Made by a program: the position numbers and the translations under genes. Below the pieces are notes generated by a model that was given only the letters and a program-made list of their open reading frames with translations, was not told the origin of the DNA and did not search any database. A stretch of DNA of 64,000 nt from a virus (taxonomy: Duplodnaviria > Heunggongvirae > Uroviricota > Caudoviricetes). The stretch is from IMG/VR virus record IMGVR_UViG_2671180724_000008. One strand, 5' to 3'. Shown here one piece after another: positions 2,401-49,153 of this stretch; position 1 is the first letter of the stretch; every line of letters starts with the position of its first letter.

Positions 2401-2458
2401 CCTGCTTCCGTATATATAAATAATAAGTAACTTATTAAATATATACAGAAGCAGGTCT
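2401..2458. repeat. Long hairpin element (CCTGCTTCCGTA, AT-rich loop about 35 nt, TACAGAAGCAGG) with T-run; similar copy at 49095-49153
   Basis: 12-bp stems in two related copies; loop of this copy contains the ATAAGTA..CTTAT palindrome. Confidence 0.5.
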
Positions 2459-2562
2459 TTTAAAAGACACCACCAGAACAACTCCCTTCCGTTTCCACTT
2501 CCAAAAACTGCCACCAGTCGCTATCATCCGCCCATTGTGATAAGTAAGTAACTACCTACCAG

Positions 2563-3312
2563 GTGAGCCACATGAGCCAAATCTTTTTCGACACCATCGA
2601 CAACGACCAGTACGACTTCATGACAGAGTGGAATACCGCTGTTATGGATAAGTGGGTTGCTGAAAACATTGGTTTGTCGCGTTGCAAAGACGAGGCTGAA
2701 CTCTTCGATACGAAGTGGTTTGATTACCGCGACATGCATCCTCTTATGGCCACCTGTCTGTTTACAGAGGCATACAAACGTCAGTACTCAAATATCATGC
2801 TGACGCACGGTCGAGAACACTTTGAAACAGCTCCGTTCACCACCGGGTTAAAACGCCTGCCTTATCAGGAGTTGTCGACTGCCAATAAAACGTCGCTATG
2901 GAAAGCACGCCAGTTTGCTGACCGCTATTGCTGCTCATACGACTACTTTATTTCCACCGTTCTTTCCGCAGCTGCACGACGACTGTGGGACAAGCTGCCG
3001 CGTCCGCAGCATTTGTGGCAGCCAGAACTGATTGAGATATTCGAAGATAAATTAGCCAGACGCGCAACAACCCGTCTGGATGACTCTCTGGTTAGCTTTA
3101 AGCATATGGGAGACATGCAGTTCAACCCGATTCAGGAAAGCTATTTTGAGTGGATTCTGGAGCGTTTACGCGCCATCCCCCGCAGCAAGCGCATACGCGC
3201 AATTTTCTCCGCTATCTGGCTAATGGAAATCGTTCCAGAGCGCCTTATTTCCGCCCACTTTCCAGAAGAACTGGAAGAAGCACGGCGGTTTATTGATCCC
3301 CTATCTAATTAA
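2563..3312 (+). CDS. Hypothetical protein (directly upstream of the helicase)
   Basis: 249-aa ORF; no motif recognised. Confidence 0.5.
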   Translation: MSHMSQIFFDTIDNDQYDFMTEWNTAVMDKWVAENIGLSRCKDEAELFDTKWFDYRDMHPLMATCLFTEAYKRQYSNIMLTHGREHFETAPFTTGLKRLPYQELSTANKTSLWKARQFADRYCCSYDYFISTVLSAAARRLWDKLPRPQHLWQPELIEIFEDKLARRATTRLDDSLVSFKHMGDMQFNPIQESYFEWILERLRAIPRSKRIRAIFSAIWLMEIVPERLISAHFPEELEEARRFIDPLSN

Positions 3313-3355
3313 CTAATACTAGAAAACAATTTGTTTAAAAAACAAAGGAAAGCAC

Positions 3356-4696
3356 ATGACCGAACTTTGCCATACAGGACGCGGGCTGTCCGAAGAGTTT
3401 GATGAAGATTTCCAGAACAGACTGACGGCATATTTTTGTCGTGATCACGAGTTTCTTACTCGTGCGGGAGATCTGGTTGTGCCTAGCCAATTTGCCAATG
3501 CGGCCAATGCCATATTGGTTAATATGGTTTCGGGCTATTACCGTATGTACAAGAGCGCGCCCTCTTCATCTGCAATTCTGGATATGCTTAAGCGTGCGAA
3601 ACGCGATAAGACTATCCGTGAGGAACTATTCGCCGATGTTGTTGCTGCGTTTAAGCGCATCCTTGCAGAAAAATTGTCCGATACCTCGTACATGGTTGAC
3701 CAGGTATCAACCTTCGCAAAAAGCGTAGCGTTTGATGATGCTCTGATTAAGGCTGCTGAACTGAAAGAGAAGGGCGACTTTCAGGGGGCGATGGCAATCA
3801 TGGCCAAGGTTCAGCAGATTGGATCGAATGAAGCGACCGGAATCTATGACTACTACACCTCCGCAAGTGAGCGATTGAAAGCGCGTGAATATGAGGCTTC
3901 AGAGGAGTATGTACCAAACAGTATTACAACTGGACTCCCTCTTCTCGATAGGTTGCTGTACCAAAAAGGCTGGGCAAAGCGCGAAATGGTGCTCTTCATG
4001 GGGTTCGCTAAATCCGGTAAATCGACCGCAATGGGTGAGTTTTCCATAAACGCAACGCTTGCCGGCTACAATGTTCTGTATCTCTCGCTGGAGGTTCACA
4101 CCAACATTTTGTCCGACCGCTTTGATGCAAGATTGTCGGAGACGGAAATGTCCAAGCTGGTGGAACGGCGCGATGAAGTTCATCGTAAGTTGGCAGAGTT
4201 GGGAGCCACGAAGGGGATTGGTAGTTTGTGGGTTGTTGAGCGTCCGTCAGGAAGTATGTCACCGGCCGATCTGGACCGTATGCTTAACAGTATGAAAGCC
4301 AATGGCATGGTGCCTGACATGGTTGTTGTCGACTACGCAGATTTGATGCGTGCCAGTTATGACCTTCGTGATGATCGCGCCAATATTCGTAGTATCTACA
4401 CCGATTTACGTGCTCTTTATGACAAACATAACGTTGCTGGGATCACGGCATCGCAGACAAACCGTGAAGGTGGCGCGTCAGAAGTTGCCACAATGATGCA
4501 CGCTGCCGACAACATCGAAAAAGTACGTATTGCTGACCTGGTAATAACGATCAACAAAACCGAAGAAGAAGAAGCGAAAGGAGAGGCTCGTCTCTACTTT
4601 GCTGGTTCGCGTAACCAGCAGGGAGGGATCAGCATTCGCGTTAAACAAAACCTCGAACAAATGCGCTTCATTGAGCGAATCTTAGACGTTACCTAA
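3356..4696 (+). CDS. DnaB-family replicative DNA helicase
   Basis: RecA-fold Walker A GFAKSGKST and Walker B-like MVVVDYADLM; conserved AAAGGAAAgCACATG initiation context. Confidence 0.8.
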   Translation: MTELCHTGRGLSEEFDEDFQNRLTAYFCRDHEFLTRAGDLVVPSQFANAANAILVNMVSGYYRMYKSAPSSSAILDMLKRAKRDKTIREELFADVVAAFKRILAEKLSDTSYMVDQVSTFAKSVAFDDALIKAAELKEKGDFQGAMAIMAKVQQIGSNEATGIYDYYTSASERLKAREYEASEEYVPNSITTGLPLLDRLLYQKGWAKREMVLFMGFAKSGKSTAMGEFSINATLAGYNVLYLSLEVHTNILSDRFDARLSETEMSKLVERRDEVHRKLAELGATKGIGSLWVVERPSGSMSPADLDRMLNSMKANGMVPDMVVVDYADLMRASYDLRDDRANIRSIYTDLRALYDKHNVAGITASQTNREGGASEVATMMHAADNIEKVRIADLVITINKTEEEEAKGEARLYFAGSRNQQGGISIRVKQNLEQMRFIERILDVT

Positions 4697-4701
4697 AAAA
4701 T

Positions 4702-4726
4702 AAGCGTGGAGAACACCTCCACGCTT
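4702..4726. other. Hairpin AAGCGTGGAG-aacac-CTCCACGCTT in the helicase-primase intergenic region
   Basis: Perfect 10-bp stem; T-run lies on the minus-strand side, so not a plus-strand terminator. Confidence 0.4.
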
Positions 4727-4777
4727 GATTCATTGGTGAAACAACTTTTCTTTTGCCAAACCACAAAAGAAAAACAC

Positions 4778-5959
4778 ATGAGCCTTTATGTTATATCAAC
4801 ATTTAGGTTGGTCACAATATTGCCTGTTAAAAGTGGAATTATCGTGAGCGAGCTGAAAGAGCTAATTACCGAATTAGATTTTGAACAATGGTTGGACACT
4901 GAAGGTATCGTTTATCGACGTGGAGGTGTGAGTGCTCGCGGTCGTGAAGTGAATATCAAGGAGTGTCCGGTATGCGGCAGCTCCAACTGGAAGGTATATT
5001 TCAATCTGACCAGTGGCGTCGGCAAATGCTTCGCTGGTGATCATCCCGAAGAGATTCAGTTCAATAAGCTGGTCTTCCTCAAGCACTACAGCGGTAAATC
5101 ACGACGACAGTTCGAGGAATATGTGCAGAACGCTCTTCTTTCCCAGGGGTGGGCACCAAAGAAAGAAGAGATAGTGCTTGCAAGCACAGTCGAGTTAGAG
5201 GGACCACTTGCACTCCCTCGTCATTACGAGCTTCCTATAGATGGCCGTCTTCCAGACTATCTGGTTGAACGAAACATATCACCTGAAATGGCAAAGTATT
5301 TTGACCTACGATACTGCGTCGAAGGCAAGCACGCTTATGTAGATCCGTATACAGATCAGGTAAAAGGACAGATATTCGATATGCGAGTACTGATACCGGT
5401 TTACGATCTGGATGGGGTAATGAAGACATTTCAGGGACGAGACATTACCGGTACAGCAGACCGCCGCTACCTCTTTCCTATGCAGCTTCCAGCTTCAGGT
5501 AAGTTTCTCTACAACGGCCATAATGCGGTCGGCAAACAGACTGTAGTTGTCTGTGAGGGGGCGTTCGATGTTATGGGGGTTAAACGAGCTATTTTTGATG
5601 AAGAAACATTACGTGATTACGTGGAACCGATAGGAACGTTCGGGATGCATCTATCTGGTAACACCACTCAGGATGCAGAAGATCAGTTAGGCGCGTTCCT
5701 GACGCTCAAGGCGCGTGGGTTACGTAATGTGATCATGATGTGGGATAGTGAAAAGCAAGCTATACGCAACACTATGGCCGCAGCCAGGCGACTGACCAGT
5801 ATCGGTCTTAATGTCAAAGTTGCGTGTTTGGGTGAGGAAGGACTCGACCCAGGCGGTGCAACGCCAGAACAAATTATCAAAGCCTATTATCGGGCAAAAC
5901 CGTATACCAAACAGTTGGAGTTGCAAAGCAAGGTTTTGGGCATTAAGGCTCTATCGTAA
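4778..5959 (+). CDS. DNA primase (zinc-ribbon plus TOPRIM, DnaG-like)
   Basis: CPVCGSS...GKC zinc motif and VVVCEGAFDVMG TOPRIM-like motif; start set at 4778 by the conserved AAAACACATG context. Confidence 0.75.
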   Translation: MSLYVISTFRLVTILPVKSGIIVSELKELITELDFEQWLDTEGIVYRRGGVSARGREVNIKECPVCGSSNWKVYFNLTSGVGKCFAGDHPEEIQFNKLVFLKHYSGKSRRQFEEYVQNALLSQGWAPKKEEIVLASTVELEGPLALPRHYELPIDGRLPDYLVERNISPEMAKYFDLRYCVEGKHAYVDPYTDQVKGQIFDMRVLIPVYDLDGVMKTFQGRDITGTADRRYLFPMQLPASGKFLYNGHNAVGKQTVVVCEGAFDVMGVKRAIFDEETLRDYVEPIGTFGMHLSGNTTQDAEDQLGAFLTLKARGLRNVIMMWDSEKQAIRNTMAAARRLTSIGLNVKVACLGEEGLDPGGATPEQIIKAYYRAKPYTKQLELQSKVLGIKALS

Positions 5960-5973
5960 CAAACGCCGTTAAA

Positions 5974-5994
5974 ATAAGTAGATGATTACTTATC
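5974..5994. promoter_or_regulatory. Copy of intergenic palindrome family ATAAGTA-N-TACTTATC
   Basis: One of about 15 dispersed copies, all intergenic. Confidence 0.4.
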
Positions 5995-6034
5995 TTTCTG
6001 TAAGAATACTTTCATCTGTTAGCTAGGAGTTGGT

Positions 6035-6817
6035 ATGAAAGACGAAATTCAGAAATTAGCCTGCGACATCATTGATAAAACTGGTTTAGAAATCAGCGAG
6101 AGCAATCGACTAGACATCATTGAAAAAGCGGTAAAAACAGCAATGGATCATATCGCCACTCGTTTGGTTGAGATCCCGCTACCAGGGCTACCTTATCTGA
6201 AGGTTGAGTTACACGTATGGGGTGAACCTTCTTGTGCACGGCGTTCTGCATTAGTTGTTTTTATTAGCAAAGAAAACCCGCTCAGTCTTAAAGTGCAGGT
6301 TGGTGCATGGATGGATGGAAAAGTGATCTACACAAATACCGTTTTTTGTGCGCCAAACGACAGTATTATTGAAGAGGCTATTCAGGAATCACTTCTAACT
6401 ATGCATAGCTTAGTTTTGCTGGAAGACAAGCAAAACTACGAAGAGTACTTACGGTCGATAAAAGGTGAGAGAACATTGTCACTTAAAGCCGATTTTGTTA
6501 CCCCGACAAACCTGTTGGAAGTCTTGCTTAATAAAGGGGCTAATGATGCCGTAAATGTAATCAGAGAGAGTGAGTATGCGTCTCTTTGCGACATGTGCAA
6601 AAGCCAGTTGGATCTGGTGCATATCGTTATTGATGCTGGGAAGGCATGTGATGGCGTAATGGCGGAATTTGCTGGGAAGATGGTCAGGATTGCTAACGAA
6701 TTACCGATGATAGAGCAAGAGGCTAAATCATACGCCACCAATCATGTCACAGAGCTTCTTGTCCCCTATCGCTTAGAAAGCAATCAGCGCAAGATGGTTA
6801 GCTGGGGAAGTTGGTAA
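6035..6817 (+). CDS. Hypothetical protein
   Basis: 260-aa ORF with GGAG RBS. Confidence 0.5.
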   Translation: MKDEIQKLACDIIDKTGLEISESNRLDIIEKAVKTAMDHIATRLVEIPLPGLPYLKVELHVWGEPSCARRSALVVFISKENPLSLKVQVGAWMDGKVIYTNTVFCAPNDSIIEEAIQESLLTMHSLVLLEDKQNYEEYLRSIKGERTLSLKADFVTPTNLLEVLLNKGANDAVNVIRESEYASLCDMCKSQLDLVHIVIDAGKACDGVMAEFAGKMVRIANELPMIEQEAKSYATNHVTELLVPYRLESNQRKMVSWGSW

Positions 6818-6872
6818 TCTCTCCGCGCGTCGTTTTTTACGCAAATAACGATAGGTAAGTACAAGATTATTT

Positions 6873-7355
6873 ATGGCGGTAGTTGTGAAAGCTGATTTGT
6901 CAAAAATCCCCTCTATTTCAGGAAATAATGGTTATTCACTTCGTTGTGAGGAAGTAAAGATAAACGGTGAGTCGGCATATTGCAGCTACTCCGTTTGCCA
7001 GCACACCATTCTTGCCTTCAAAGAAAACCGTCTTCCTCGAACTTCATTCCAGTCGTGCGCAACCACTATCAAAGCAGGCAAATGCAAGGCGTTAAAAATG
7101 ATGGTTGAAGAGATTCGTAAAGGAGAATCTCTGTATTTCGAAGATATGACCGCGCTCATTAAGGAGGTTGAAGAACGGAATAAACAAGCCAGAACTATAA
7201 AACGAAAACGTGACAGTGTAACGATTAATAGCATGGTTAAGAAGAGCACCACATCACAAACAGCGATCACTGACGTGTATGCGGCGTTGCTTGAAGAAAC
7301 AACAAAAGAAACACATGAGCAAATCGATCAACATATGGAGGCAAAACAACAATGA
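6873..7355 (+). CDS. Hypothetical protein
   Basis: 160-aa ORF; stop overlaps the ligase start. Confidence 0.45.
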   Translation: MAVVVKADLSKIPSISGNNGYSLRCEEVKINGESAYCSYSVCQHTILAFKENRLPRTSFQSCATTIKAGKCKALKMMVEEIRKGESLYFEDMTALIKEVEERNKQARTIKRKRDSVTINSMVKKSTTSQTAITDVYAALLEETTKETHEQIDQHMEAKQQ

Positions 7356-8674
7356 AAAAGTTGATCGCACTTAAGCATAAGCTGGACGAAATGAAAGCTA
7401 TGGGAACCAATGCAAAAAAAGAGGCATTGGCCAACATGGATGACTTCGAGCAAAGCATGGTTTCATTGATGCTCAACCCTTTCATCCGTTTTGGGGTAAA
7501 GAAATACAAAGTGGCAGAGCCGCTTAGTGAGTCCGTCCCAAGTGACGAAAAAGCCATTGATATACTGAATAAGCTGGCCTCTCGCGAGCTGACGGGGAAC
7601 GCAGCAATAGCTGCTGTTGAGTCTATCGTGGCGTCAATGTGCGCCGATGGGCAGGACGTGTTCCGTCGTTTCCTCTTAAAAGATCCGAAAGCTGGCGTTG
7701 GGATTAGCCTATGCAACAAGGTTTTTGAAAATCCCATTCCGAAATTCGAGGTGCAGCTGGCGTCACCGTATAAAGAAAAAGGCGACAAATACCCCTTCAA
7801 GCCAAATCCTAAAGCAAAATGGCCGATGATTGGCAGCCTTAAGCTCGATGGTTTGCGAGTAATTTGCGAGGTTATTGTTGACGAGGAAGAGGTGAACTTC
7901 CTTTCTCGTACTGGTAATCCAATCACGTCTCTCGATCACCTAAAGCCAGCCATGCTCGAATTAGGCAAACTTTCAGGCCACAAACACATCTTCTTCGATG
8001 GTGAAGGAACAGCCGGTTCATTTAACAAGTCCGTATCTGCATTGCGCAAAAAGAACGTGCAGGCAATTGGCGCTATTTATCATGTTTTCGACTTCTTCCT
8101 ACCGGAATGGCGGGCACAGGCTAAATCCAAAGAGTATGCAAAGACAGGTATGAAGCTGAAAGAGCGCCTGGCTATTCTCGTGGCGTTGTTCAAAAACGAT
8201 CGCAGTGAAGACTACGCGCAAGACATTCACCTACATCCGTTCTACATCATCCATAGCCACGAAGACTTCATCGAACGCTTCATGAAACGCCTGGACGATA
8301 ACGAAGAAGGGGAGATGGGCAAAGATCCGAACTCTGTTTACGAGTTTAAACGTACCCGCAGCTGGTGGAAGTTAAAAGACGAAGATTCAGAAGATGGTGA
8401 AATTATCGACTTTGAGCCGGGCGACCCGGACTCTGGTTTTGCCAACACACTTGGAAAAATTGTTATTCGTCTTGAAAACGGCGTCATCGTTCGTGCGAGC
8501 GGCATTAAGCATAAATATCTGGACGAGATCTGGAACAACAAAGAGAAGTACCGTGGTCGTATTGTCGAGGTTCATTGTCACGAGAAAACACCGGACGGCA
8601 GCTTACGCCACCCACGACTGAAATGGCCGCGTTGCTTACGCGATACAGAAGATCGAATCGGAGATAAAGAATGA
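7352..8674 (+). CDS. ATP-dependent DNA ligase
   Basis: Adenylation motif I KLDGLR and WWKLK-type motif V. Confidence 0.8.
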   Translation: MKKLIALKHKLDEMKAMGTNAKKEALANMDDFEQSMVSLMLNPFIRFGVKKYKVAEPLSESVPSDEKAIDILNKLASRELTGNAAIAAVESIVASMCADGQDVFRRFLLKDPKAGVGISLCNKVFENPIPKFEVQLASPYKEKGDKYPFKPNPKAKWPMIGSLKLDGLRVICEVIVDEEEVNFLSRTGNPITSLDHLKPAMLELGKLSGHKHIFFDGEGTAGSFNKSVSALRKKNVQAIGAIYHVFDFFLPEWRAQAKSKEYAKTGMKLKERLAILVALFKNDRSEDYAQDIHLHPFYIIHSHEDFIERFMKRLDDNEEGEMGKDPNSVYEFKRTRSWWKLKDEDSEDGEIIDFEPGDPDSGFANTLGKIVIRLENGVIVRASGIKHKYLDEIWNNKEKYRGRIVEVHCHEKTPDGSLRHPRLKWPRCLRDTEDRIGDKE

Positions 8675-8850
8675 TGCTCGGCTGGATGATTGCATTTTTA
8701 GCGGTTGGTTTTTTAATCGGTATTGTGGTGATGTCCAGTTGCATCAATGACTACATTAAAAGCGGTGTTATAGAACGACGCGGTCGTATTTATCGCATTG
8801 TAGAAATAACCCACACAGTGAAGGAGATTAAGGATGATCGTATTAAGTAA
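8671..8850 (+). CDS. Small membrane protein (59 aa; below track cutoff)
   Basis: ATG overlaps ligase stop; hydrophobic helix MLGWMIAFLAVGFLIGIVV; C-terminal RRGRIYRIVE shared with next small protein. Confidence 0.4.
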   Translation: MMLGWMIAFLAVGFLIGIVVMSSCINDYIKSGVIERRGRIYRIVEITHTVKEIKDDRIK

Positions 8851-9485: not shown

Positions 9486-9494
9486 AAACATATT

Positions 9495-9516
9495 GATAAG
9501 TATTTACTTACTTATC
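9495..9516. promoter_or_regulatory. Copy of palindrome family GATAAGTAtttacttaCTTATC followed by TTTT
   Basis: Perfect 8-bp AT-rich arms. Confidence 0.4.
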
Positions 9517-9875
9517 TTTTGTGTATAAGATGACTTTGTTTTCGTTGAGACGCGACTGTTTGAACTTAAATACAAGTGCAAACGAAGAAGTCTATCTGGC
9601 AGTAGCCTAATAAGCCAAACACCAGCGAGGTCAGTTTCCAGCCTCGTTACCGAAATGGGACACACTGAGCGAGTGTGATTGCAGAACGCAGGAGGGAACA
9701 TTCATGTTCCCTCCGATGAAGTAACAGAATGGGCGGTTGGTATATTTTCAACTCCATATGACTCCCGGATTCTTAGCCACTGACCGCCCATCCTGTTACG
9801 TCATTTTGTTCAATTATGTCGTTTATACTGGGTTAAAAAGCGGCGACGTAGCCCGGCTGGTATGGTTAGCCAGCA

Positions 9876-10263: not shown

Positions 10264-10339
10264 GATGGTGTAGCTCAGCGGTAGAGCAGTTGGCTGTTAA
10301 CCAACTGGTCGGTGGTTCGAATCCACCCACCATCGCCAA
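10264..10339 (+). tRNA. tRNA-Asn (anticodon GUU)
   Basis: Cloverleaf by hand: acceptor GATGGTG/CACCATC, anticodon stem GTTGG/CCAAC with loop CTGTTAA, T-arm GGTGG-TTCGAAT-CCACC, 3' CCA. Confidence 0.8.
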
Positions 10340-10343
10340 TTTA

Positions 10344-10430
10344 GGGGAGTTAGTCCGTAGAGGTAGCGGTGTAGACTGTAAATCTACTGTCATTGCGACT
10401 CGGGTGGTTCGACTCCATCACTCCCCACCA
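10344..10430 (+). tRNA. tRNA-Tyr (anticodon GUA), long variable arm
   Basis: Acceptor GGGGAGT/ACTCCCC, anticodon stem GTAGA/TCTAC with loop CTGTAAA, T-loop TTCGACT, 3' CCA. Confidence 0.7.
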
Positions 10431-10434
10431 AATT

Positions 10435-10510
10435 GCCGGTTTAGCTCAGTTGGTAGAGCGCCTGCCTTGTAAGCAGGATGTCAGCGGTTCGTGTCCGTTA
10501 ACCGGCACCA
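10435..10510 (+). tRNA. tRNA-Thr (anticodon UGU)
   Basis: Acceptor GCCGGTT/AACCGGC, D-arm GCTC-AGTTGGTA-GAGC, anticodon loop CTTGTAA, T-arm AGCGG-TTCGTGT-CCGTT, 3' CCA. Confidence 0.8.
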
Positions 10511-10518
10511 ACATAATA

Positions 10519-12854: not shown

Positions 12855-12888
12855 ACAAATGATAGGTGTGTACATATCTATCATTTGT
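12855..12888. promoter_or_regulatory. Palindrome ACAAATGATAG-N12-CTATCATTTGT in promoter region of the minus-strand gene
   Basis: Perfect 11-bp inverted repeat; half-site related to the GATAAGTA family. Confidence 0.45.
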
Positions 12889-23136: not shown

Positions 23137-23253
23137 TTTTTGATAGATAATAAGTAAGTACTGATCTATCATTTAACAGCTCGAAAGAGCCACGAATGAA
23201 CGAAAGCCCAACGCGCATAGCGCCATCGGCCAAATCACAACAAGGAGAAACAC

Positions 23254-26652: not shown

Positions 26653-26665
26653 ATCTCTTGAAAAT

Positions 26666-26686
26666 ATATAAGTACTTACTTATCAT
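26666..26686. promoter_or_regulatory. Copy of palindrome family ATAAGTACTTACTTATC
   Basis: Between terminator and next start. Confidence 0.4.
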
Positions 26687-26715
26687 TTTCACATAACAAC
26701 CACATAGGAAAACAC

Positions 26716-27791: not shown

Positions 27792-27845
27792 ATTCTCGTT
27801 ATTATCACATACAAGAAAACAATTTGTTAAAAGGTTAAGTTAATT

Positions 27846-28670
27846 ATGCCCAACCACATTACAAACGAAATCCGAGTCATAGGTGGCACAAATAAACAAC
27901 GCTTAGATTTCATACGTGCCATAACTAACAAAAAAGGTCTAATTGACTTTAATACCATTTGCAGACGTCCGAAAAGTATAGAAATGGAAGAAAACAATCA
28001 TATCAGGCGCATGGCCTCTGCAATGGCGGGCGAAACAGTTTACGACTACATGTTCGGTGAATTAAAGACTCCAGAACAGCTCGAATTAGCTATGCGTGAA
28101 TCAGGAATGACACGCAAGGAAATTCGCAAAATCAAAGAGCAGGCTCTTATGCGGCTTGAGAATTATCGTCGCTATGGCTATTACTCATGGTTTGACTGGT
28201 CGCGAGCTAATTGGGGAACAAAATGGAATGCCTACAACATCGAAATGCCCGTAAAACGTATCCCTACACGTATTAAGTACGGCCATAATTTCCGCCATAC
28301 ACACGTTCGAGCATATGCAAAACGAATCTATAAAAAACGTCTTGCAAGACATGCCGCAACTGGTGGTGAGTTGGTGATTCGCTTTGAAACAGCCTGGTCT
28401 ATGCCAAAACCAATTTATCAAGCGATGGCTAGAAAGTTCCCGCACCTTGAGTTTGTAATACGTTATGCAGACGAAGACTTCGGCAATAACTGCGGATTCA
28501 TTTTACTTCGCAACGGCAAATGGGAATATGACTACATTGCACCGGCGAATAACGAACAATCGTCAGAAGAAAAAATCAAATGGCGCAAGTTCGCCTTTGA
28601 GTTATGTTGTCCTGGTATCACTCCACAAGAATACGGTCTAAATGAAGAATACGAATACGCCGGATATTAA
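27846..28670 (+). CDS. Hypothetical protein
   Basis: 274-aa ORF preceded by the AGAAAACAATTTGTT motif. Confidence 0.5.
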   Translation: MPNHITNEIRVIGGTNKQRLDFIRAITNKKGLIDFNTICRRPKSIEMEENNHIRRMASAMAGETVYDYMFGELKTPEQLELAMRESGMTRKEIRKIKEQALMRLENYRRYGYYSWFDWSRANWGTKWNAYNIEMPVKRIPTRIKYGHNFRHTHVRAYAKRIYKKRLARHAATGGELVIRFETAWSMPKPIYQAMARKFPHLEFVIRYADEDFGNNCGFILLRNGKWEYDYIAPANNEQSSEEKIKWRKFAFELCCPGITPQEYGLNEEYEYAGY

Positions 28671-31449: not shown

Positions 31450-31496
31450 ATGCAAACTGACTGCGGCTCGTTCCGCAGTCATATTTCATAGTCGTC

Positions 31497-32029
31497 ACCG
31501 CTGACAGCATACACAATCAACTACCGCTGATAGCATATCGAGAGTCTATCTTACCGCTCACAGCATACTTTACTCGATTTTTTACCGCTGACAGCATACT
31601 TAAGACATTGCATGAATAATGTGTACCGGTATGGGTATAACCAGAACAAAATTACCGCTGGCAGCATACGAAGGTCTGACATATACCATTAATTACCGCT
31701 GATAGCATATCCAAACAAAAATTCCTCAATAAAACACCGCTGACAGCATACGTTCTATCAGGGAGCAGCAGGCAATAAATGCCTTTCACTACAAGCAATC
31801 AGCGCAATAGCAATAGAATGTTAGTGAGCGCAAACCTATATGGAATGCACTCTTCGAGGTTAGTAACCACTGGGGAGGTATGACAGAGCATTGAGTGGTG
31901 ATAGATGATTTACCGCTCACAGCATACGTTCATCTCACTATACCGCTGGTAGCATATCTTTAACCGTTCACAGCATACTTTTCAGAAAAATAGCCGCTGA
32001 TAGCATACATTTCACCGCTGACAGCATAT
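31497..32029. repeat. Iteron array downstream of repA (incA-like): about 12 copies of 17-bp TACCGCTGACAGCATAC in two clusters
   Basis: Direct imperfect repeats at roughly 31497, 31522, 31553, 31583, 31653, 31694, 31735, 31911, 31941, 31962, 31991, 32013; irregular spacing. Confidence 0.85.
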
Positions 32030-33141: not shown

Positions 33142-33245
33142 CAACCGCTGACAGCATACTTGATTTGCCGCTGGCAGCATACAAAAAACAGTTGGCAGCA
33201 TACGGCGAACCGTTGACAGACTATCAATTACCGCTGACAGCATAC
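33142..33245. repeat. Iteron array upstream of repA (origin/incC-like): about 5 copies
   Basis: Copies at about 33142, 33166, 33190, 33209, 33229, between repA start and GATC cluster. Confidence 0.8.
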
Positions 33246-33279
33246 ATGAACATGGCTTCAGACCAGTCGTGGCGCGGCT

Positions 33280-34089: not shown

Positions 34090-34343
34090 CCCTCCAGATC
34101 GTATATTGGCGTAGATAGAATCTACGCCCCCTCAAAATAGCTCTCATAGCGTTCTACAGTGATCCTGTCTTATTTTTAGTCATACAGGCAAGCAAAGTTG
34201 CGCCACAACAAATAGGTATATACTTACTTATAAATTTTGTATATTAAGACGCTCGTTTCATTCCTAACATACCGTTATGCATAGTTGTTTACCTTCTCAT
34301 TGCTCTTAAAATTTGTATCAAAATAACCACAAAGGAAAAACAC

Positions 34344-38893: not shown

Positions 38894-38917
38894 TGATAGG
38901 TAAGTGCTTATCTATTA
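38894..38917. promoter_or_regulatory. Copy of palindrome family TGATAGGTAAGTGCTTATCTA
   Basis: Intergenic upstream of nrdA. Confidence 0.4.
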
Positions 38918-41276: not shown

Positions 41277-41281
41277 CATAT

Positions 41282-41308: not shown

Positions 41309-41381
41309 GATTTGTAAGCCTTGTTTAAACAAATAAGATAACAACTTGTTTAAACACATCAAAAAGCAAAAGGAAAAACAC

Positions 41382-42601: not shown

Positions 42602-43471
42602 ATGAACTTTACCAAACTGACTGACCACCTGAAACTTGCCACCGATCGACTCATTGGATTTAAGCCAGAACCATATGAGTTGCATGAAGGTCATGGTGTA
42701 GCTACTGAAAGTATTTACAAGATGGTCGATCAGTTTCATGAACTCTTCCAGCATCCGAGACGCGTTATGCCGACACCAGAGCTGCTTCGTCTCCGTGCAA
42801 GCCTGATTCATGAAGAAGCTGTAGTGGAAGGTATTCCAGCCGCAATGAATGGGGATATTGAGCAACTGCTGGATGCAATGGCCGACTTTTTATACGTTGG
42901 TGTTGGTACGATGGTCGCCATCAAAGGTGGTATTTCTACCGGCATGACCTATTACACGCAGGAACAGAGCATTGATCGCTTTATGCAGACAATTTTTGTG
43001 CCTGGTAACACTGTTTTCGATGATATGGCAATGCCATTTCAGGAAGCTCGTGAGGCGTCATGTATGCTCGAAGAGCTGGCAGATAAACTTGAGAACAAGA
43101 CTGTTAAGGATTCTGAGCTGATTCAGGAACTGCGCCGTGTAATGAACAAAATCTATGTGGCGTGCATGATGACCTATCGACTGGCTGATTTCCTCGGTAT
43201 CAATGTCGTCGAGCTGGTTGGCGAAATTCATCGGTCCAACATGACAAAATTATGGCCTGCAGATGCCGAAGAGCGTCGCCATGCTGTGGCCAACTGCAAA
43301 TACGACTCTTCTGACCTGGGATTTCGCCATGCTGATGGCACCGATAAGATGATCGGTTTTCGAATTTCCGATGGAAAGATTCTGAAGTCTCCAACCTATA
43401 GTGATGTCGATTTATCCTCCTTTGTTGAGCAAGCTAAAGCCTCAGCAATGTACGGAATGATCAAAAAATAA
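42602..43471 (+). CDS. Hypothetical protein, possibly MazG-like nucleotide pyrophosphohydrolase
   Basis: Weak match to MazG EExxE...D pattern (LIHEEAVVEG ... DAMADFLYVGVG). Confidence 0.3.
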   Translation: MNFTKLTDHLKLATDRLIGFKPEPYELHEGHGVATESIYKMVDQFHELFQHPRRVMPTPELLRLRASLIHEEAVVEGIPAAMNGDIEQLLDAMADFLYVGVGTMVAIKGGISTGMTYYTQEQSIDRFMQTIFVPGNTVFDDMAMPFQEAREASCMLEELADKLENKTVKDSELIQELRRVMNKIYVACMMTYRLADFLGINVVELVGEIHRSNMTKLWPADAEERRHAVANCKYDSSDLGFRHADGTDKMIGFRISDGKILKSPTYSDVDLSSFVEQAKASAMYGMIKK

Positions 43472-43540
43472 TTGTAGGTAGTTATCTATCTGTGTATATT
43501 GCATTGGCGCGTTAAATTTCTGAAACAACTATTCGTTTTT

Positions 43541-43566
43541 GGTGGCCTATGGCCACCATTTTTTTA
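43541..43566 (+). terminator. Rho-independent terminator (GGTGGCC-tat-GGCCACC then TTTTTTT)
   Basis: Hairpin plus T-run. Confidence 0.75.
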
Positions 43567-43642
43567 TCTATCTGGTCTTGTTCGCTCAATAAATGTAAAC
43601 TCACATAATGAATAAGTAGTTACTTATCTTTGTGAGGTTTTT

Positions 43643-44746
43643 GTGTCACTCCTTTTGAATCGTGAGCATACGAACGGTCAGGTAACAAACGCATCGTATG
43701 CAAAAGTTATTGAGACGGTGCTTAAAAGCGGCGTGCAGGCTGATGATCGCACAGGCACTGGTACTTTAAGCACCTGCTACGTTCCCTCTTACTACATGCT
43801 TACTGGTGGGACTGTGCCGCTTATTTCTGGAAAGGCGGTAAATCTTAAGCCACTACTTGTCGAACTTGAGTGGTATCTGAAAGGCACGGGCAACATCCAA
43901 TTTCTCAAGGATAACGGCGTTAAGATTTGGGATGCATGGGCCGATGAGAATGGCGATTTGGGGCCGGTTTACGGTAAGCAGTGGCGTCGCTGGGAAGATA
44001 CCCGCATCGTGAGCCATAGTGAGTATCTGAGCAAGATCGATACGTTCCGTGAACGCGGGTACAAAGTCGAGGGATACCTGGGTATCAGTGAAGATCGCGT
44101 AGTGCTGTCCCGTGAAATCGATCAGCTACAGCGTATTGTCGATACACTGCGCACGAACCCTACCGATCGTCGCATCATGCTTAACGCATGGAACGTAGGC
44201 GAGCTTGAGGATATGAAACTGCCACCTTGCCACTTTGTCTTCTCTTTGTGGAGTCGTGAGCTTGATTTTGAAACCCGTTTAACGATGGCAACTGACATTG
44301 GTCTTCAACACAGTCGCCTCGGTTACGAGTCTATCTACACCAAGATGCTATACGATCTGGAGATGGTCGGCAGTGTTACTGAAACTGAACTGGATGAACT
44401 TGGAATCCCCAAACGCATCCTCAACTCCTGCCTCGTACAGCGTAGCGTAGACACTTTTGTTGGTATGCCATTCAATATTGCTGGTTATGGCATTCTCACT
44501 CATTTTCTCGCGAAGATTACGGGTCACATGGCCGGTGCCTTTGTGCATTTTGGCTTTGACGTGCATTTGTACAATAACCACATGGAAAGTGTGTGTGAGC
44601 TAATGAAACGACAGGCTCCAGAGCATTCAGATCCGGTCGTTATTTTCCCTCATGAATGGTCTGAGCTGGATGATTTCAAATGGGACGATATTCTGATTCT
44701 TGGCTATGACCCTCTACCGTGGATCAAGGTTCCAGTGGCGGTGTGA
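43643..44746 (+). CDS. thyA: Thymidylate synthase (ThyA) with two insertions
   Basis: Motifs DRTGTGTLS, LPPCHF, QRSVDTFVGMPFNIAGYGILT; about 100 aa longer than E. coli ThyA. Confidence 0.9.
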   Translation: MSLLLNREHTNGQVTNASYAKVIETVLKSGVQADDRTGTGTLSTCYVPSYYMLTGGTVPLISGKAVNLKPLLVELEWYLKGTGNIQFLKDNGVKIWDAWADENGDLGPVYGKQWRRWEDTRIVSHSEYLSKIDTFRERGYKVEGYLGISEDRVVLSREIDQLQRIVDTLRTNPTDRRIMLNAWNVGELEDMKLPPCHFVFSLWSRELDFETRLTMATDIGLQHSRLGYESIYTKMLYDLEMVGSVTETELDELGIPKRILNSCLVQRSVDTFVGMPFNIAGYGILTHFLAKITGHMAGAFVHFGFDVHLYNNHMESVCELMKRQAPEHSDPVVIFPHEWSELDDFKWDDILILGYDPLPWIKVPVAV

Positions 44747-44747
44747 T

Positions 44748-45161
44748 ATGGCAAGAGGTATGTATGTCTTATGCGAAATTGAAGGTGTGCTGGCAAATAC
44801 CAGCCATCGTAAATCTGTATCTGACGCGGATGCAGGCCAGCTCATTGCCGGTGATGAACTCATTTTCCCTACCAGCCGTATGTTGCGTGGTTTTGCTCGC
44901 TCAGGGGCTGAAGTGGTGCTTATCAGTAGCCGCTCTGAAACCCTTGAAGCGCCCACTAAACGATGGCTGAAAGATTTTGGTGTTGATTACGACTGGCTTC
45001 ATCTCGTACCGAATGGCATCAGTTATGAGAAGCATATTAAGCGCACATTAGCGGAGCATAAAGGCGATCTGCTTATCGCTGCGCTGGTGCACGATCCTCG
45101 ACTCCGTGCCGCTTTAGCTGACTCTCATCATAGACCGGTCATCTATGAGGTGGGCAAATGA
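44748..45161 (+). CDS. Hypothetical protein
   Basis: In-frame ATG at 44748 just after thyA stop; stop overlaps DHFR start. Confidence 0.45.
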   Translation: MARGMYVLCEIEGVLANTSHRKSVSDADAGQLIAGDELIFPTSRMLRGFARSGAEVVLISSRSETLEAPTKRWLKDFGVDYDWLHLVPNGISYEKHIKRTLAEHKGDLLIAALVHDPRLRAALADSHHRPVIYEVGK

Positions 45162-45634
45162 AGATGATAGCTGCTGTTGGCCGTAATTATGAGATCGGTA
45201 GAGCGAACGAACTGCCCTGGCGTTGCTCTACCGATCTGAAGCTATTTAAGAGACTCACCAAAAACGCCACTGTCGTTATGGGACGTAAAACGATGGAAAG
45301 TCTCAAACGCCCTCTTCCAGAGCGTCATAATCTCGTTTTGACGCGCTCTCATGGCTTTGTACCAAATGGATTCTACCCTGCTGGTGTGGATGATGTGTTG
45401 CGATTACCAGAGCCTGTGTGGGTGATTGGCGGGGAACAAATTTACTCGCTATTCATGCCGCATGTTGAAGAGATTTGGCTCTCCCACATCGGCGTTGATG
45501 TACCAAACGCTGATGCATTCTTCCCGGCAAGCATGATGCGTAACTTAGGCTTTGTGCCTGTTGAAACAGCTTATACCCAACGAGCCAGCGAGGAAGAGCC
45601 TGGCTTTTCGCAGATCGTATACAGAAGGTCGTAA
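45158..45634 (+). CDS. folA: Dihydrofolate reductase
   Basis: N-terminus MIAAVGRNYEIG...LPW and VVMGRKTMESL resemble FolA. Confidence 0.85.
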   Translation: MKMIAAVGRNYEIGRANELPWRCSTDLKLFKRLTKNATVVMGRKTMESLKRPLPERHNLVLTRSHGFVPNGFYPAGVDDVLRLPEPVWVIGGEQIYSLFMPHVEEIWLSHIGVDVPNADAFFPASMMRNLGFVPVETAYTQRASEEEPGFSQIVYRRS

Positions 45635-46278
45635 TGGATTACCGGATTGGGATCACTGGTGCTCAGGGCAGTGGGAAAACAACCCTGGCTAAATATATCG
45701 ACAAACATTACGGAATCCCTTACGTGGATGCTGGTGTCGGAAGTTTGATGAGCCGCCTCGGTGTTCGAGTAGGTGAGTCTATGCCTCTATATGAGCGGCT
45801 TCAGATTCAAATGGAAATAGCAAAGCATATAGAGCTACTTACGCGTGGTGTTGAAGGCTTTGTTATCGATCGTACACCTGCTGATGTTATGGCCTACACG
45901 TTGGATTTGGTCGGCCATACAAATGAAGAGCGGTGTATTGAGTTAGCCCTCGATATCGAAAAGTTTTGCCACAAAACTGCCATTTCAAACTTTAACGCCA
46001 TTGCTGGCTTACGCCCGGGAGTCGCTCTCTCAGAGCGAGATTACTTGCGATCACAACGAGCATCATTAGACCGTCTGTATGTTGCTCGTATTGATGCGTT
46101 GATGTGCGGGGAACTGACAAAAATTCACCTGCATCCGCAAAGGGGAGATCTGCAAACCTTCGTCGTTTCCAACCGATATCGCACGGTTGAAGCAAGAGCC
46201 AGATCAGTGATGAGAATGCTAGATAACGCTGTAGAAAAGATAGAAAACCGGTTCTGTGGCCGAGTGACCGTTCATTAG
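45634..46278 (+). CDS. P-loop NTPase, putative (deoxy)nucleoside monophosphate kinase
   Basis: Walker A GITGAQGSGKTT at N-terminus; context among nucleotide-metabolism genes. Confidence 0.5.
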   Translation: MDYRIGITGAQGSGKTTLAKYIDKHYGIPYVDAGVGSLMSRLGVRVGESMPLYERLQIQMEIAKHIELLTRGVEGFVIDRTPADVMAYTLDLVGHTNEERCIELALDIEKFCHKTAISNFNAIAGLRPGVALSERDYLRSQRASLDRLYVARIDALMCGELTKIHLHPQRGDLQTFVVSNRYRTVEARARSVMRMLDNAVEKIENRFCGRVTVH

Positions 46279-46339
46279 AAATTGTTCGCCTCTTCTACAT
46301 TGCGACAATAAAACTCTCAAAATGGGTTAAGGATAAAAA

Positions 46340-46759
46340 ATGTTTAGTGAAATGTTGCTTGAAGATGAACTGGATCGGAAAACAACAGAGGCTTTGATTC
46401 GTGTGGCGGACGAACATTCTCGGTCGTTTATGAGCGATCGAGAGGCTCGTCTGGCTATTCGTGCCATATTCGAAACTGCGCAAGGGCTTGTTGGCGCACA
46501 AGTAGGTGAAGCCATTAACATCGCCATGTCTCAGTTCAGTGAAGGCAGTAAAAAGCCTCTGTTTCCTATGCATTTGATGCTGGCTGGTGGCACGGTGCTT
46601 TATATCTCTGTTTGTCTGGATAGCAACCAAATCAATATTCTCAACACTGCGTCAGGTAAGTGGAAAGATCCGATTGTCTGTGAAACCAGTGAAGAAACTT
46701 TGAAAAAAGCGGCTCAATTTGTACGTAGCGCACTACTTAAGGGCGCTAAGAAGTTGTAA
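46340..46759 (+). CDS. Hypothetical protein
   Basis: 139-aa ORF. Confidence 0.45.
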   Translation: MFSEMLLEDELDRKTTEALIRVADEHSRSFMSDREARLAIRAIFETAQGLVGAQVGEAINIAMSQFSEGSKKPLFPMHLMLAGGTVLYISVCLDSNQINILNTASGKWKDPIVCETSEETLKKAAQFVRSALLKGAKKL

Positions 46760-46768
46760 GGAGTTCTG

Positions 46769-47326
46769 ATGACAACGATTGTTGCAGGCATCGATATCGA
46801 GTCTACGGGACTGGATTTCCTTGCTGGTCATAAAATTATTGAAATCGCAATTACCCGCTATGAACTGGAGACACAGAGACATATTGATAGTCTGGAGATG
46901 CGTTTTAACCCTCGCAGAAACATAGATCCGAAAGCTCAAGCCGTTCATGGCATTTCATTGGAACAGCTCGCAGCTGAACCTTTGTTGTCAAATCATGCCA
47001 GCGAAATTGGCGCTTATATGGGGGCATGTAGTGCGTGGATTGCTCATAACGGCGAAGCGTTTGATATACCATTTATTCGGCACGAGTTTTCAGGGTATGG
47101 AGTAAGACTGCCAGACGTTCCTGTTATAGATACTATGTTATCGGGATTGTGGGCCACAGAAGACGGTAAACGCCCCCGCCTTGAAGAGTTGGCCTTCTCT
47201 CTTGGCTTTATATACGATCATGCCAAAGCACATAGTGCCTTATATGACACAAACTTAATGATGCAATGCTTCTTTAAGGCACGTAATAAGTACGGATTTT
47301 TTAAATTACCCTCTGAAATTGTGTAA
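46769..47326 (+). CDS. DnaQ-like 3'-5' exonuclease (DEDD), candidate proofreading subunit
   Basis: Exo motifs DIESTGLD, HNGEAFDIPF, HSALYD. Confidence 0.8.
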   Translation: MTTIVAGIDIESTGLDFLAGHKIIEIAITRYELETQRHIDSLEMRFNPRRNIDPKAQAVHGISLEQLAAEPLLSNHASEIGAYMGACSAWIAHNGEAFDIPFIRHEFSGYGVRLPDVPVIDTMLSGLWATEDGKRPRLEELAFSLGFIYDHAKAHSALYDTNLMMQCFFKARNKYGFFKLPSEIV

Positions 47327-47330
47327 AACA

Positions 47331-47368
47331 AAAGCCTACTTTAAAAAGTTTAAAGTAGGCTTTCTTTT
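47331..47368. terminator. Bidirectional terminator (AGCCTACTTT ... AAAGTAGGCT flanked by A-run and T-run)
   Basis: 10-bp stem with T-runs on both strands. Confidence 0.7.
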
Positions 47369-47484
47369 AAAGAACAGTCGCCTTTCAATCATTTCCTGCC
47401 TGTATTTAATACTTTTCCGCCTGATAGGTTTAGTCAAAATGTAGCCATCGAAACGCAAATGTAACCAAACAGAAGGAGACTTAC

Positions 47485-48294
47485 ATGAGTTCGGTTGAAA
47501 ATGTAATGACAAATGATGATCTGGACGAGCTGACAGCCATGTTGCAATCACTTGATGAACCAGTAAAAAAAGCTGCACAGGTTGAAAATACTGATGATAT
47601 TGACGATCTGCTGCTCGGCCTCGATGCTGGCGTAGCCATGAGTTCTGATGATGTTGCCGAAGAACTGTTCAATGAAGAAAAAGCAGGTGATTTCAGCTCT
47701 GCTTTAAATGAGTTGGAGTTAGCGCATGAGCCTATAAACGTAATTAACGCTGAAAGTGGTGAAGCTGCCGAAAATGAGCCAGAACAGTTGGGGATCATTG
47801 AGGTTGAAGAGTGTGTTGAGGTTAATGATGAATTAAAAGTTCAACAGTCAAATGATAGCAATACAAATAAAAAAACTCGTGCTGCAAGAGGTCCTCGTTT
47901 TACTTTAAGTGATAAAGATGATTCGTTTTTCAATAAAGCAGGCTTAGAAAAAGATATTTTCTTAGACGCTTACGAAAACGCGCCTGTCAAAGCGAAGGAT
48001 AAGATATTAAACCTTCTTAATTGGTTTAGCGGAGGTCCAGATATTAGTGTTTACACGGTAATTTCCATGAGACACCTTCTTACAGAAAAGAAGGCTACAA
48101 GTAATAGTATTAAGATTGCTTTAATGAGCAATCCAGAAAAACCGTATCCGCTTAACACTGCGTCAACTCAGGCTGGGCAAATGATGGCTGTATTTCCAGC
48201 TACAGGAATTGCCGTTAGAGACGGTGGAAATCTAACATTGAACGAAGAATCACCGATCGTTAAGAAGTTTGTCGCGGAGTACACTATTGGATGA
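47485..48294 (+). CDS. Highly acidic protein of unknown function
   Basis: N-terminal about 110 aa very rich in D/E; C-terminal half AT-rich; sits upstream of the Dam-type methyltransferase. Confidence 0.5.
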   Translation: MSSVENVMTNDDLDELTAMLQSLDEPVKKAAQVENTDDIDDLLLGLDAGVAMSSDDVAEELFNEEKAGDFSSALNELELAHEPINVINAESGEAAENEPEQLGIIEVEECVEVNDELKVQQSNDSNTNKKTRAARGPRFTLSDKDDSFFNKAGLEKDIFLDAYENAPVKAKDKILNLLNWFSGGPDISVYTVISMRHLLTEKKATSNSIKIALMSNPEKPYPLNTASTQAGQMMAVFPATGIAVRDGGNLTLNEESPIVKKFVAEYTIG

Positions 48295-48370
48295 CGTTCC
48301 CCTACTGAAAATAAAGCCCATAGAGAGCTTTATAGTGCTGGGTAAGCTAATCACATACCCAGCACCATAA

Positions 48371-48418
48371 AAACGCGCCAGAGAGCTTCTTGTTCGCATT
48401 TCTGGCGCGTTTTATTTG
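48371..48418. terminator. Bidirectional rho-independent terminator (ACGCGCCAGA ... TCTGGCGCGT then TTTTATTT)
   Basis: 10-bp GC-rich stem plus T-run. Confidence 0.75.
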
Positions 48419-48477
48419 ATTGCCATACATAAAATCAAATGCAAAAATAGGTAATCACTTACCTATCGAGAAAGAAG

Positions 48478-49071
48478 ATGATTGCAGCCGAAAAAATCAA
48501 ACAGCGAAAGCGCGACAACTCTCTTCGTGACCTCTGGAGAACACCTGATTGGCTGTTTTCTGCCATTCAACGTTATCTTGGAGTGACATTTGATGTTGAC
48601 GTTGCCTGCAACAAGGACAATGCAAAGCTGCCTAATTTCATAGGCATTGAGCGTGATGCTTTGAAATCTGAATGGGGACAGCCAGGTACAATTGCCTTCC
48701 TCAATCCACCCTACTCCAAAATCTCCCCCTGGATTGATGCGGCTATACGTGAGCAGGCTCGCGGAGTTACAACAGTGATGCTAATTCCTCAATCCCTCGA
48801 TACAAAGTGGTATGAGCGTGCAACAGAGTATGCGAATGAGACGATTATTCTGTCTGGTGGCCGCGTAGCGTTTGTCGAGCCTGACGTCAATTTGGGTCAG
48901 GTAGAAGTAAACATCAACCCCGGTGGCAGTATGCTCGTTGTTTTTCGAGGATTCTGTCAGGACGCTGGGCACTCTATAAGCAAGATCCCTTTGGACGTCA
49001 TGAAAAGTCTGGGAGGGTATGATCCTGCGAATGTGGTCAGGAAAAAAAGACCATCAAAGAAGGCTGCTTAG
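48478..49071 (+). CDS. Phage-type DNA N6-adenine methyltransferase (Dam family)
   Basis: WRTPDWLF, FDVDVA and NPPYS motifs. Confidence 0.8.
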   Translation: MIAAEKIKQRKRDNSLRDLWRTPDWLFSAIQRYLGVTFDVDVACNKDNAKLPNFIGIERDALKSEWGQPGTIAFLNPPYSKISPWIDAAIREQARGVTTVMLIPQSLDTKWYERATEYANETIILSGGRVAFVEPDVNLGQVEVNINPGGSMLVVFRGFCQDAGHSISKIPLDVMKSLGGYDPANVVRKKRPSKKAA

Positions 49072-49094
49072 TTTGTTCTGGCGAGTGTAATTAA

Positions 49095-49153
49095 CCTGCT
49101 TCTGTAAATAAATAACTACATATTAATTATTAATATACGGAAGCAGGCTGTTT
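49095..49153. repeat. Long hairpin element (CCTGCTTCTGTA, AT-rich loop, TACGGAAGCAGG); second copy of the 2401-2458 element
   Basis: Near-identical 12-bp stems. Confidence 0.5.

Follow-up and report, generated by a model that had tools for sequence, protein, structure and literature searches.

A three-copy hairpin element at the module borders of SSU5-like phage-plasmids

The DNA analyzed here (the window) is a 64,000-nucleotide (nt) stretch of IMG/VR virus record IMGVR_UViG_2671180724_000008 and represents 64 kb of an SSU5-like phage-plasmid. It contains two AT-rich hairpins, element 1 (2401–2455, + strand) and element 2 (49095–49147, + strand), which are two of the three copies of a cis element confined to the clade of SSU5-like phage-plasmids. 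We judge the chances to be about even that these hairpins are unusual intrinsic terminators or insulators, placed at module borders and homogenized by gene conversion. The element is described neither in Rfam nor in the literature searched in full text, and is most likely an unusually built variant of a known terminator class for which no earlier description was found.

Anatomy, copy number and distribution of the element

Escherichia phages PhiR41_1 and Cyrano match the window at 98% identity and Salmonella phage SSU5 at about 80%, and the element region of the window is 100% identical to that of the E. coli plasmid pAVS0747-B (NZ_CP124469.1, 105,196 bp). Synteny with the annotated Cyrano genome shows that the window runs from the partition genes through a region of replication, recombination, and nucleotide-metabolism genes to the later genes.

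Element 1 is a 55-nt hairpin (CCTGCTTCCGTA-N31-TACAGAAGCAGG) with a semi-palindromic, AT-rich interior, and the T-run TCTTTT (2456–2461, + strand) follows directly on its 3' side. Element 2 is a 53-nt hairpin (CCTGCTTCTGTA-N29-TACGGAAGCAGG) followed directly by CTGTTTT (49148–49154, + strand). The two have their 12-nt arms in common, separated by AT-rich interiors of 29–31 nt; the exact arm pattern occurs in the window only at these four arm positions, and the pair constitutes the longest inverted-repeat pair of the window. Compared with shuffled sequence, the predicted folds of elements 1 and 2 (−24.3 kcal/mol, z = −8.9; −19.1 kcal/mol, z = −5.1) place the two T-run hairpins reported in the first-pass annotation far beyond chance. 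The same annotation distinguished them from GC-stem terminators, and a sliding fold over the whole window agrees: all other strong hairpins have GC stems, no further AT-rich hairpin of this kind was found, and element 1, with a G+C content of 27%, is an outlier among the hairpins of the window. The description of the interior as a long loop applies in part. Diverged relatives do have an open loop of 25–29 nt atop a 12–14 bp stem, but in the window genome the interior is largely self-complementary, and element 1 forms 23 base pairs (8+8+7) capped by a 3-nt apical loop, its interior being an imperfect palindrome. A simple terminator scan misses both elements because its loop limit is 8 nt. An Rfam scan of the window at gathering score returned three tRNAs only, and a permissive Rfam scan near element 1 returned only sub-threshold noise from miRNA hairpins.

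The two window copies match as an inverted pair because each is palindromic and because the asymmetry at arm position 9 is swapped in element 1 (C/A, not T/G). Judged by the T-run, the TTCTGG box upstream, and the CCAGA box downstream that flank them, they are direct repeats. The interior and the arm asymmetry are found flipped relative to the flanks, and it follows that no oriented signal is coded inside the hairpin. Several motifs seen by eye within the element, namely a T4-late-type TATAAATA box, split LexA-box halves (CTGT...ACAG), and a lox-like CTTCGTATA, were rejected, since their spacing is wrong, the interior is found in either orientation, and key bases are variable (C/T, G/A). The T/G at arm position 9 was likewise dropped as evidence for a strand-specific (G.U) signal in coding-strand RNA, as copy C of SSU5 and Klebsiella is flipped, as is element 1, and the pattern may be heritable or convertible.

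Two copies had been counted initially; both are real, but there are three per genome, the third lying outside the window. This copy (slot A) is located upstream of the small terminase gene (terS) on the source plasmid, 28 nt past a small gene and ~117 nt ahead of terS; in Cyrano it is split over the ends of the linear record, again directly upstream of terS. Slot B, occupied by element 1 and represented by >50 loci, lies 114–121 nt ahead of the c31/DnaB-helicase/primase operon. Slot C, occupied by element 2, lies ~27 nt from where the coding match to the Dam methylase ends and 106–119 nt ahead of a 76-codon gene. A pattern scan of IMG/VR, in which a total length of 44–74 nt was allowed, yielded at least 120 stretches, and the matched copies all fall in slots A, B, or C with the exception of two marker-less loci (one at a contig edge, one a probable chance match). 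When up to three mismatches per arm were tolerated, exactly three copies were found in each of three whole genomes. The search for further copies proposed in the first-pass annotation has therefore yielded the copy ahead of terS and, in family-wide scans, three copies per genome; because of this third copy and the conservation across the family, the hairpins are not simple terminators lacking other copies.

Among complete E. coli genomes, 260 of 5426 (about 5%) carry the element, at 1383 places, of which 1379 are on plasmids of roughly 105–120 kb and four are chromosomal. The median of six places per genome corresponds to three loci counted on both strands. Homologues of c31 were found on 937 PLSDB plasmids from Klebsiella, Escherichia, Enterobacter, Salmonella, Citrobacter, and others, a scan of genome contigs gave five loci, and Kluyvera and Buttiauxella also have the canonical hairpin. 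Relatives whose large terminase (TerL) is 81–90% identical lack hairpin A. A 72-kb plasmid variant and larger fragment-bearing plasmids were considered as possible deletion derivatives between copies, and proved to have ordinary contexts around the element.

The copies resemble each other in ways that cross the slots. In one genome copies A and B are identical at 55 of 55 bases, and in two other genomes lineage-specific interiors are common to A and C. The B alleles of E. coli plasmids are either ‘A-like’ or ‘Salmonella-like’, and the interior of Cyrano B is the flipped form of the Salmonella-type interior. These sequence patterns show that the copies undergo gene conversion and internal flips, which accounts for the likeness within genomes and for the odd C/A state of element 1. 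The near-identity of the three copies would then result from homologous gene conversion together with selection against single stem mutations. On the left, the homology of the window with Cyrano and SSU5 extends no further than element 1, and slot B has highly diverse upstream flanks; copy B therefore forms the fixed right edge of a cargo slot. To the left of element 1 this slot holds a LEM-3-like GIY-YIG nuclease gene in the window (1522–2289, minus strand), a DUF2971 gene in SSU5, and a different hypothetical gene in Cyrano.

Proposed termination and insulation at module borders

All 26 distinct slot-B sequences and most of those from slot C have a T-rich tail after the hairpin, and basal lineages have a copy A with a long U-tract. 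The copies of slots A and C, like those of slot B in SSU5 and in Cyrano, are located 23–31 nt past the stop codon of a co-directional upstream gene. Element 2 is 23 nt past the stop codon of the co-directional Dam methylase gene (49069–71) and 109 nt ahead of the next ATG. No hairpin is present next to a divergent upstream gene (slot A in loci L193–195, slot B in locus L220). In the distant Klebsiella plasmid NZ_CP057316, GC-stem terminators are found 10–40 nt downstream at slots B and C, and the AT-rich element lacks its left arm. Three stem-extending pairs outside the conserved arms covary (GC/AU/UA; AU/GU; GU/GC/AU).

Transcript levels fall across the orthologous copy B. In RNA sequencing (RNA-seq) of LF82/Cyrano lysogens, the values for ParA (49.8), CYRAN_29 (89.1), and CYRAN_30 (54.6) give way to 6.2 for CYRAN_31, which lies past copy B (PMC9928086), the background median of normalized expression being 9.8 (PMC9928086 S1 table). 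Expressed as log2, values are 5.7–10.4 upstream vs 2.3–4.2 downstream of this copy, and in one condition the drop is from 10.4 to 2.6 (PMC9928086). The initial suggestion of a regulatory site is consequently retained in the form of termination or insulation, on the basis of the hairpin with its U-tract, the position of element 2, and the drop over the orthologous copy B.

In the mechanism we propose, each copy would close one transcription unit and precede the control region of the following one, and these units are the packaging and structural genes, the helicase–primase replication genes, and the genes after the Dam methylase. In + strand RNA, a 12–17 bp clamp, CCUGCUUCYGUA(UA) / (UA)UACRGAAGCAGG, would close right before the U-tract, so that the element would act as an intrinsic terminator. 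In the prophage-plasmid state, the lytic modules would be insulated from read-through of constitutively expressed maintenance and cargo genes.

Each copy also has a (G)TCTGGG(AG) box upstream and one to four CCAGA(C/A) boxes downstream, past the T-run. On the + strand of the window, element 1 is preceded by TTCTGGG (2373–2379), which is complementary to the CCAGAA of its partner box CCAGAAC (2473–2479), beyond the T-run; element 2 is preceded by TTCTGG (49076–49081) and followed by CCCAGAC (49167–49173), and in both cases pairing is predicted. The slot-B upstream box persists beside unrelated cargo genes. The first box pair is predicted to form an outer helix that, in the core clade, encloses both hairpin and U-tract, and flank complementarity is strong at A (mean z = −3.2), moderate at C (−1.5), and weak at B (−0.9). 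In the distant Klebsiella group the boxes flank the GC-stem terminators in reverse order (CCCAGA...TCTGGG) with their complementarity kept, which fits pairing better than an oriented protein site. The box pair (G)TCTGGG(AG) / (CT)CCCAGA(C), the latter lying beyond the U-tract, would pair only in read-through RNA. This suggests a second mode like that of lambda tI/sib, in which a longer duplex would form and be processed, for example by RNase III, when lytic growth overrides termination.

The comparison with intrinsic terminators has two sides. The G+C-containing stem right before the U-tract, the location just past a stop codon where the upstream gene is co-directional, and the gene-level drop over the orthologous copy B recall such terminators, and both window copies combine a stable stem with a G+C-rich base and a U-tract immediately 3' of it. 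Unlike the usual loop of 3–10 nt, however, the interior is AT-rich and 25–31 nt long; one stem sequence recurs at three loci and is kept across genera, total length is conserved, copy A lacks a U-tract, and an additional complementary box pair lies outside the U-tract. In phage lambda, the tI terminator is nested in the sib RNase III site, which serves retroregulation of int. As in tI/sib, the hairpins are contained within a longer dyad, the outer half of which lies past the termination point, so that the long duplex is available only in read-through RNA. In contrast to tI/sib, RNase III cleavage and an antiterminator are hypothetical here, there are three copies rather than one, and the outer helix is short (6–11 bp) and separated from the inner helix by large internal loops.

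A number of features are left unexplained by termination and weigh against it. In the core lineages of E. coli, Salmonella, and Klebsiella, copy A is not followed by a U-tract (CTTAGTAAG, TTCTGAAT, CTCTCAAAC); despite this, no other copy is as highly conserved or has palindromic flanks that extend as far. Nothing else in its intergenic region is conserved as well: across 38 distinct sequences the right half does not vary at all, unlike the left half and the synonymous sites of the neighboring gene. In the core clade, a separate putative GC-stem terminator with a U-rich tail is present 20 nt ahead of terS. In locus L219, which has a c31 of 65% identity, 23 of the 24 arm bases are retained, but there is no U-tract. 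Total length is 52–58 nt in all 127 listed matches, where 44–74 nt was allowed, and this holds for lineages with wholly different interiors and even for those with open loops of 25–29 nt; a terminator would be expected to favor a short loop. The arm sequence, beyond its pairing, is kept where the flanking protein is ~63–65% identical, and mismatches at arm position 6 (A.A, G.A, U.C) persist without compensation. In the distant group, the right arm is changed in an identical way (GAGCCAGG) in each of the three slots, including those that have lost the left arm. Element 1 has a C.A mismatch on the + strand and no co-directional upstream gene in the window, its left neighbor being on the minus strand. 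For the outer boxes, a permutation test revealed no covariation beyond the common consensus (5.43 vs 5.60 expected pairs). The LF82 RNA-seq values, finally, are gene-level, derive from a relative, and concern copy B; they are uninformative for slots A and C, as the genes upstream of these are silent.

Some of these features could be accommodated if the hairpins formed a coordinated control set read by one dedicated trans-acting RNA- or DNA-binding factor, a proposal that we hold tentatively and think improbable. Such a factor would recognize the arm sequence, with the fixed-length AT-rich spacer as part of its site, and all three module borders would be opened or closed together on induction. 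It might act by hairpin-specific antitermination or processing, or at the DNA level by ParB-like silencing or origin firing. Its existence would explain why copy A is conserved without a U-tract, why the arms outlast the U-tract, and why a common altered arm is found at three slots.

Alternative functions and related elements

About as doubtful is a cis site operating at the DNA level, in which inverted arms of 12–14 bp at a fixed distance would be bound by a phage-plasmid protein or would extrude as a cruciform. Lytic replication might start or the DNA unwind at such a site, it might act as a dispersed centromere or in silencing through the ParB/Srx-like proteins whose genes lie upstream of copy A, or recombination-dependent replication might enter there. 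Its appeal lies in the constant length of 52–58 nt combined with interchangeable AT-rich interiors, in arm conservation that reaches deeper than that of the U-tract, and in the independence of arm asymmetry and interior orientation from strand. The arm variant found in all three slots of the distant lineage and the contrast between the invariant right and variable left half of slot A also suit a DNA site, and the genome codes for ParB/Srx-type, UvsX/Y/W-like, SbcCD-like, and RuvC-like proteins. Few dispersed copies per replicon are likewise seen for the RK2 KorB operators and the N15 centromere sites, and inverted conserved arms flanking a fixed-length AT-rich core for initiator sites of the herpes simplex virus (HSV) oriS type. 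Known ParB sites, however, are contiguous palindromes of 13–16 bp, and the gap of 28–34 bp between half-sites matches no known ParB, recombinase, or repressor site. The binding protein is hypothetical, the element is absent from close relatives (TerL 81–90% identical) and from lineages whose upstream gene is divergent, the distant group can do without the left arm, and the stem extensions covary. The iteron plasmid origin, moreover, is elsewhere, at 31.5–33.2 kb. This origin region comprises at least ten 21-nt iterons (TTACCGCTGACAGCATAC) in two clusters (31495–32011 and 33142–33248) around a repA-like gene, placed by synteny with Cyrano CYRAN_63.

Somewhat less likely again is that RNA processing or stability is the main function, with the 23–25 bp AU-rich duplex and the outer helix serving as an RNase III substrate, or the AU-rich loop as an RNase E site, so that polycistronic transcripts would be cut at module borders and the stability of the flanking mRNA set there. 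The T7 early RNase III sites and lambda sib are analogues. The duplex forms of E. coli and Salmonella are long enough for RNase III, but diverged lineages leave a stem of 12–14 bp, which is too short. The outer complementarity extends across the U-tract and peaks at copy A, which is conserved although it lacks a U-tract, and the order of the boxes is reversible while their complementarity stays; against this, the boxes do not covary beyond their consensus, cleavage by RNase III is hypothetical, and the sharp transcript drop at copy B is more simply understood as termination.

A packaging signal, in which copy A would be the pac or cos start of terminase and copies B and C secondary paralogues or co-opted terminators, seems very improbable. 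The proximity of copy A to terS (~117 nt) would be in keeping with it, as would the virion-derived SSU5 GenBank record, which opens inside hairpin A, ~8 nt from the dyad, an improbable place for an arbitrary start. The ends of the SSU5 record NC_018843.1 (L129 14263–14300 plus L127 1–18) and of the Cyrano record OV696614 both fall within hairpin A, which points to a physical end of the DNA or else to an assembly that broke at the palindrome. TerL is of the T4-like Terminase_6N/Terminase_3 type, a type often linked to headful packaging, for which additional start sites would be harmless. The start of the SSU5 record is explained equally well, however, if the assembly broke at this palindrome, which is hard to sequence. 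None of the other contigs and records examined ends in the hairpin, and this includes the IMG/VR contigs scanned; the start of the Klebsiella phage p4727 record was discarded as evidence, as this record simply starts at ATG. Hairpin A is absent where TerL is 81–90% identical, and copies B and C, which behave as terminators, are distant from terS.

We give equally little credence to a selfish or neutral palindromic repeat, a small MITE- or REP-like element spread to three intergenic sites and devoid of function. Nested inverted repeats, three dispersed copies, conversion between them, and the position of copy B beside a variable cargo slot would be expected of such an element, but in every genome, across several genera, it is these three slots that are occupied, with no new insertion sites seen, the hairpin is far more conserved than adjacent intergenic and synonymous positions, and it is nearly absent from chromosomes (the four of 1383 places noted above). 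The REP/BIME and ERIC repeats of enterobacterial chromosomes, which are present in hundreds of copies, are also imperfect intergenic palindromes able to terminate transcription or stabilize mRNA; their sequences differ, and the element described here is limited to one phage-plasmid clade.

The least probable explanation is that the hairpins are targets of a site-specific recombinase mediating inversion or excision between copies. The first-pass annotation had raised recombination, and the data do not support it. Conserved inverted arms and a tyrosine integrase gene in the genome could be cited in its support, but the arms are 28–34 bp apart in all 127 copies vs 6–8 bp in tyrosine recombinase cores, and no integrase is annotated in the regions of SSU5 that were read. 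The flanks make the copies direct repeats, all >120 copies occupy the same slots, and neither deletion nor inversion variants were seen in >120 loci and 260 genomes. A distant resemblance of the arms to lox-type CTTCGTATA half-sites was rejected for its wrong spacing. A telomere-resolvase site, comparable to the telRL-type palindrome of ~56 bp, was also rejected, because the replicons are circular: the records of pAVS0747-B, PhiR41_1, and plasmid NZ_CP057316 are listed as circular, and the matching E. coli plasmids derive from complete assemblies. No protelomerase is annotated in the records read.

The reading as module-border terminators also invites comparison with the PeSL cassettes of T4-like phages, composites of terminator and promoter which number in the dozens, cluster in hyperplastic regions, and have a promoter within the repeat (PMC2839356, PMC4122927). 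PeSLs are repeated conserved stem-loops upstream of promoters that serve as points of homologous exchange (PMC2839356, PMC4122927), and copy B similarly borders a cargo slot. In contrast to PeSLs, the hairpins number exactly three, at fixed positions between core modules, and only copy B borders a variable slot; a promoter candidate follows copy B only, and the regions downstream of A, B, and C are mutually non-homologous.

Neighboring motifs and wider significance

Downstream of element 1, a sigma-70-like sequence (TTCCAA-N17-TATCAT, 2499–2527, + strand) is a candidate promoter for the c31/helicase operon, and TTC(C/A)AA-N17/18-TAT(C/G)AT is kept in SSU5, in locus L219, and in the distant Klebsiella group. 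Between this candidate and the c31 ribosome-binding site lies a D3-type palindrome (GATAAGTAAGTAACTACCTACCA, 2539–2561, + strand), a probable operator, and the palindrome downstream of the copy-B promoter candidate is conserved in distant relatives as well. It belongs to a family of the form (G/A)ATA(A/G)GTA-N1-6-TAC(T/C)TAT(C/T), located 10–35 nt ahead of start codons and probably constituting an operator set. The remaining window sites of this family are at 5972–6000, 9494–9522, 12860–12888, 23148–23176, 26662–26690, 34210–34238, 38895–38916, 43606–43634, 48446–48467, 50648–50684, and 54709–54737. The apex of hairpins A and B (AATAAGTAACTTATT) resembles one site of this family.

A second repeat family, AAGAAAACAAnTTGTTTAA, is a small palindrome located 15–40 nt ahead of + strand start codons, and probably represents a promoter/operator or translational operator motif. 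Its copies in the window are at 378–408, 3308–3338, 27801–27831, 41323–41353, 51542–51572, 52271–52301, 52985–53015, and 55944–55974. Two further copies precede terS, outside the window, and similar boxes occur where TerL is only 81% identical. The GC-stem hairpin in the terS leader has the form GAGCGC-N6-GCGCTC plus TGTGTGTTTT (about 28170–28200 of locus L214, minus strand of the record, outside the window), shows a compensatory change to GAGCAC/GTGCTC in one lineage, and looks like an attenuator or terminator in a late-operon leader.

Further observations concern the surroundings of the two window copies and their relatives. Between the convergent parB-like and GIY-YIG genes to the left of element 1, a perfect GC-rich palindrome of 35 nt (TCATGCATTGGCGC...GCGCCAATGCATGA, 1473–1507) is probably a bidirectional terminator. 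Downstream of the 76-codon gene that follows element 2, the interval 49541–49885 is strongly structured, contains TCTGGG boxes, and corresponds to CYRAN_81, the expression of which in lysogens is 12-fold above background; it may represent a prophage-active gene for a small RNA or a small protein. Three clustered tRNA genes are found at 10264–10507 and are assigned to Asn, Thr, and Ser by the annotation of the syntenic Cyrano cluster. Two plasmids, one from Aeromonas (locus L222, 2430–2753) and one from Acinetobacter (locus L223, 1911–2450), are distant relatives in which an hfq gene separates the c31 homologue from the DnaB-like helicase gene.

Clinical Enterobacteriaceae commonly harbor SSU5-like phage-plasmids, which are able to carry resistance genes. 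The three boundary hairpins offer a testable handle on how the lytic modules of these replicons are insulated from expressed maintenance and cargo genes, and they provide defined landmarks for the variable cargo slot beside copy B. With three hits per replicon, the set is also a simple sequence marker of the clade. If it is true that a dedicated factor reads the conserved arms, the hairpins would represent a new way to coordinate phage modules; if there is no such factor, they would be an ordinary terminator family of unusual build.

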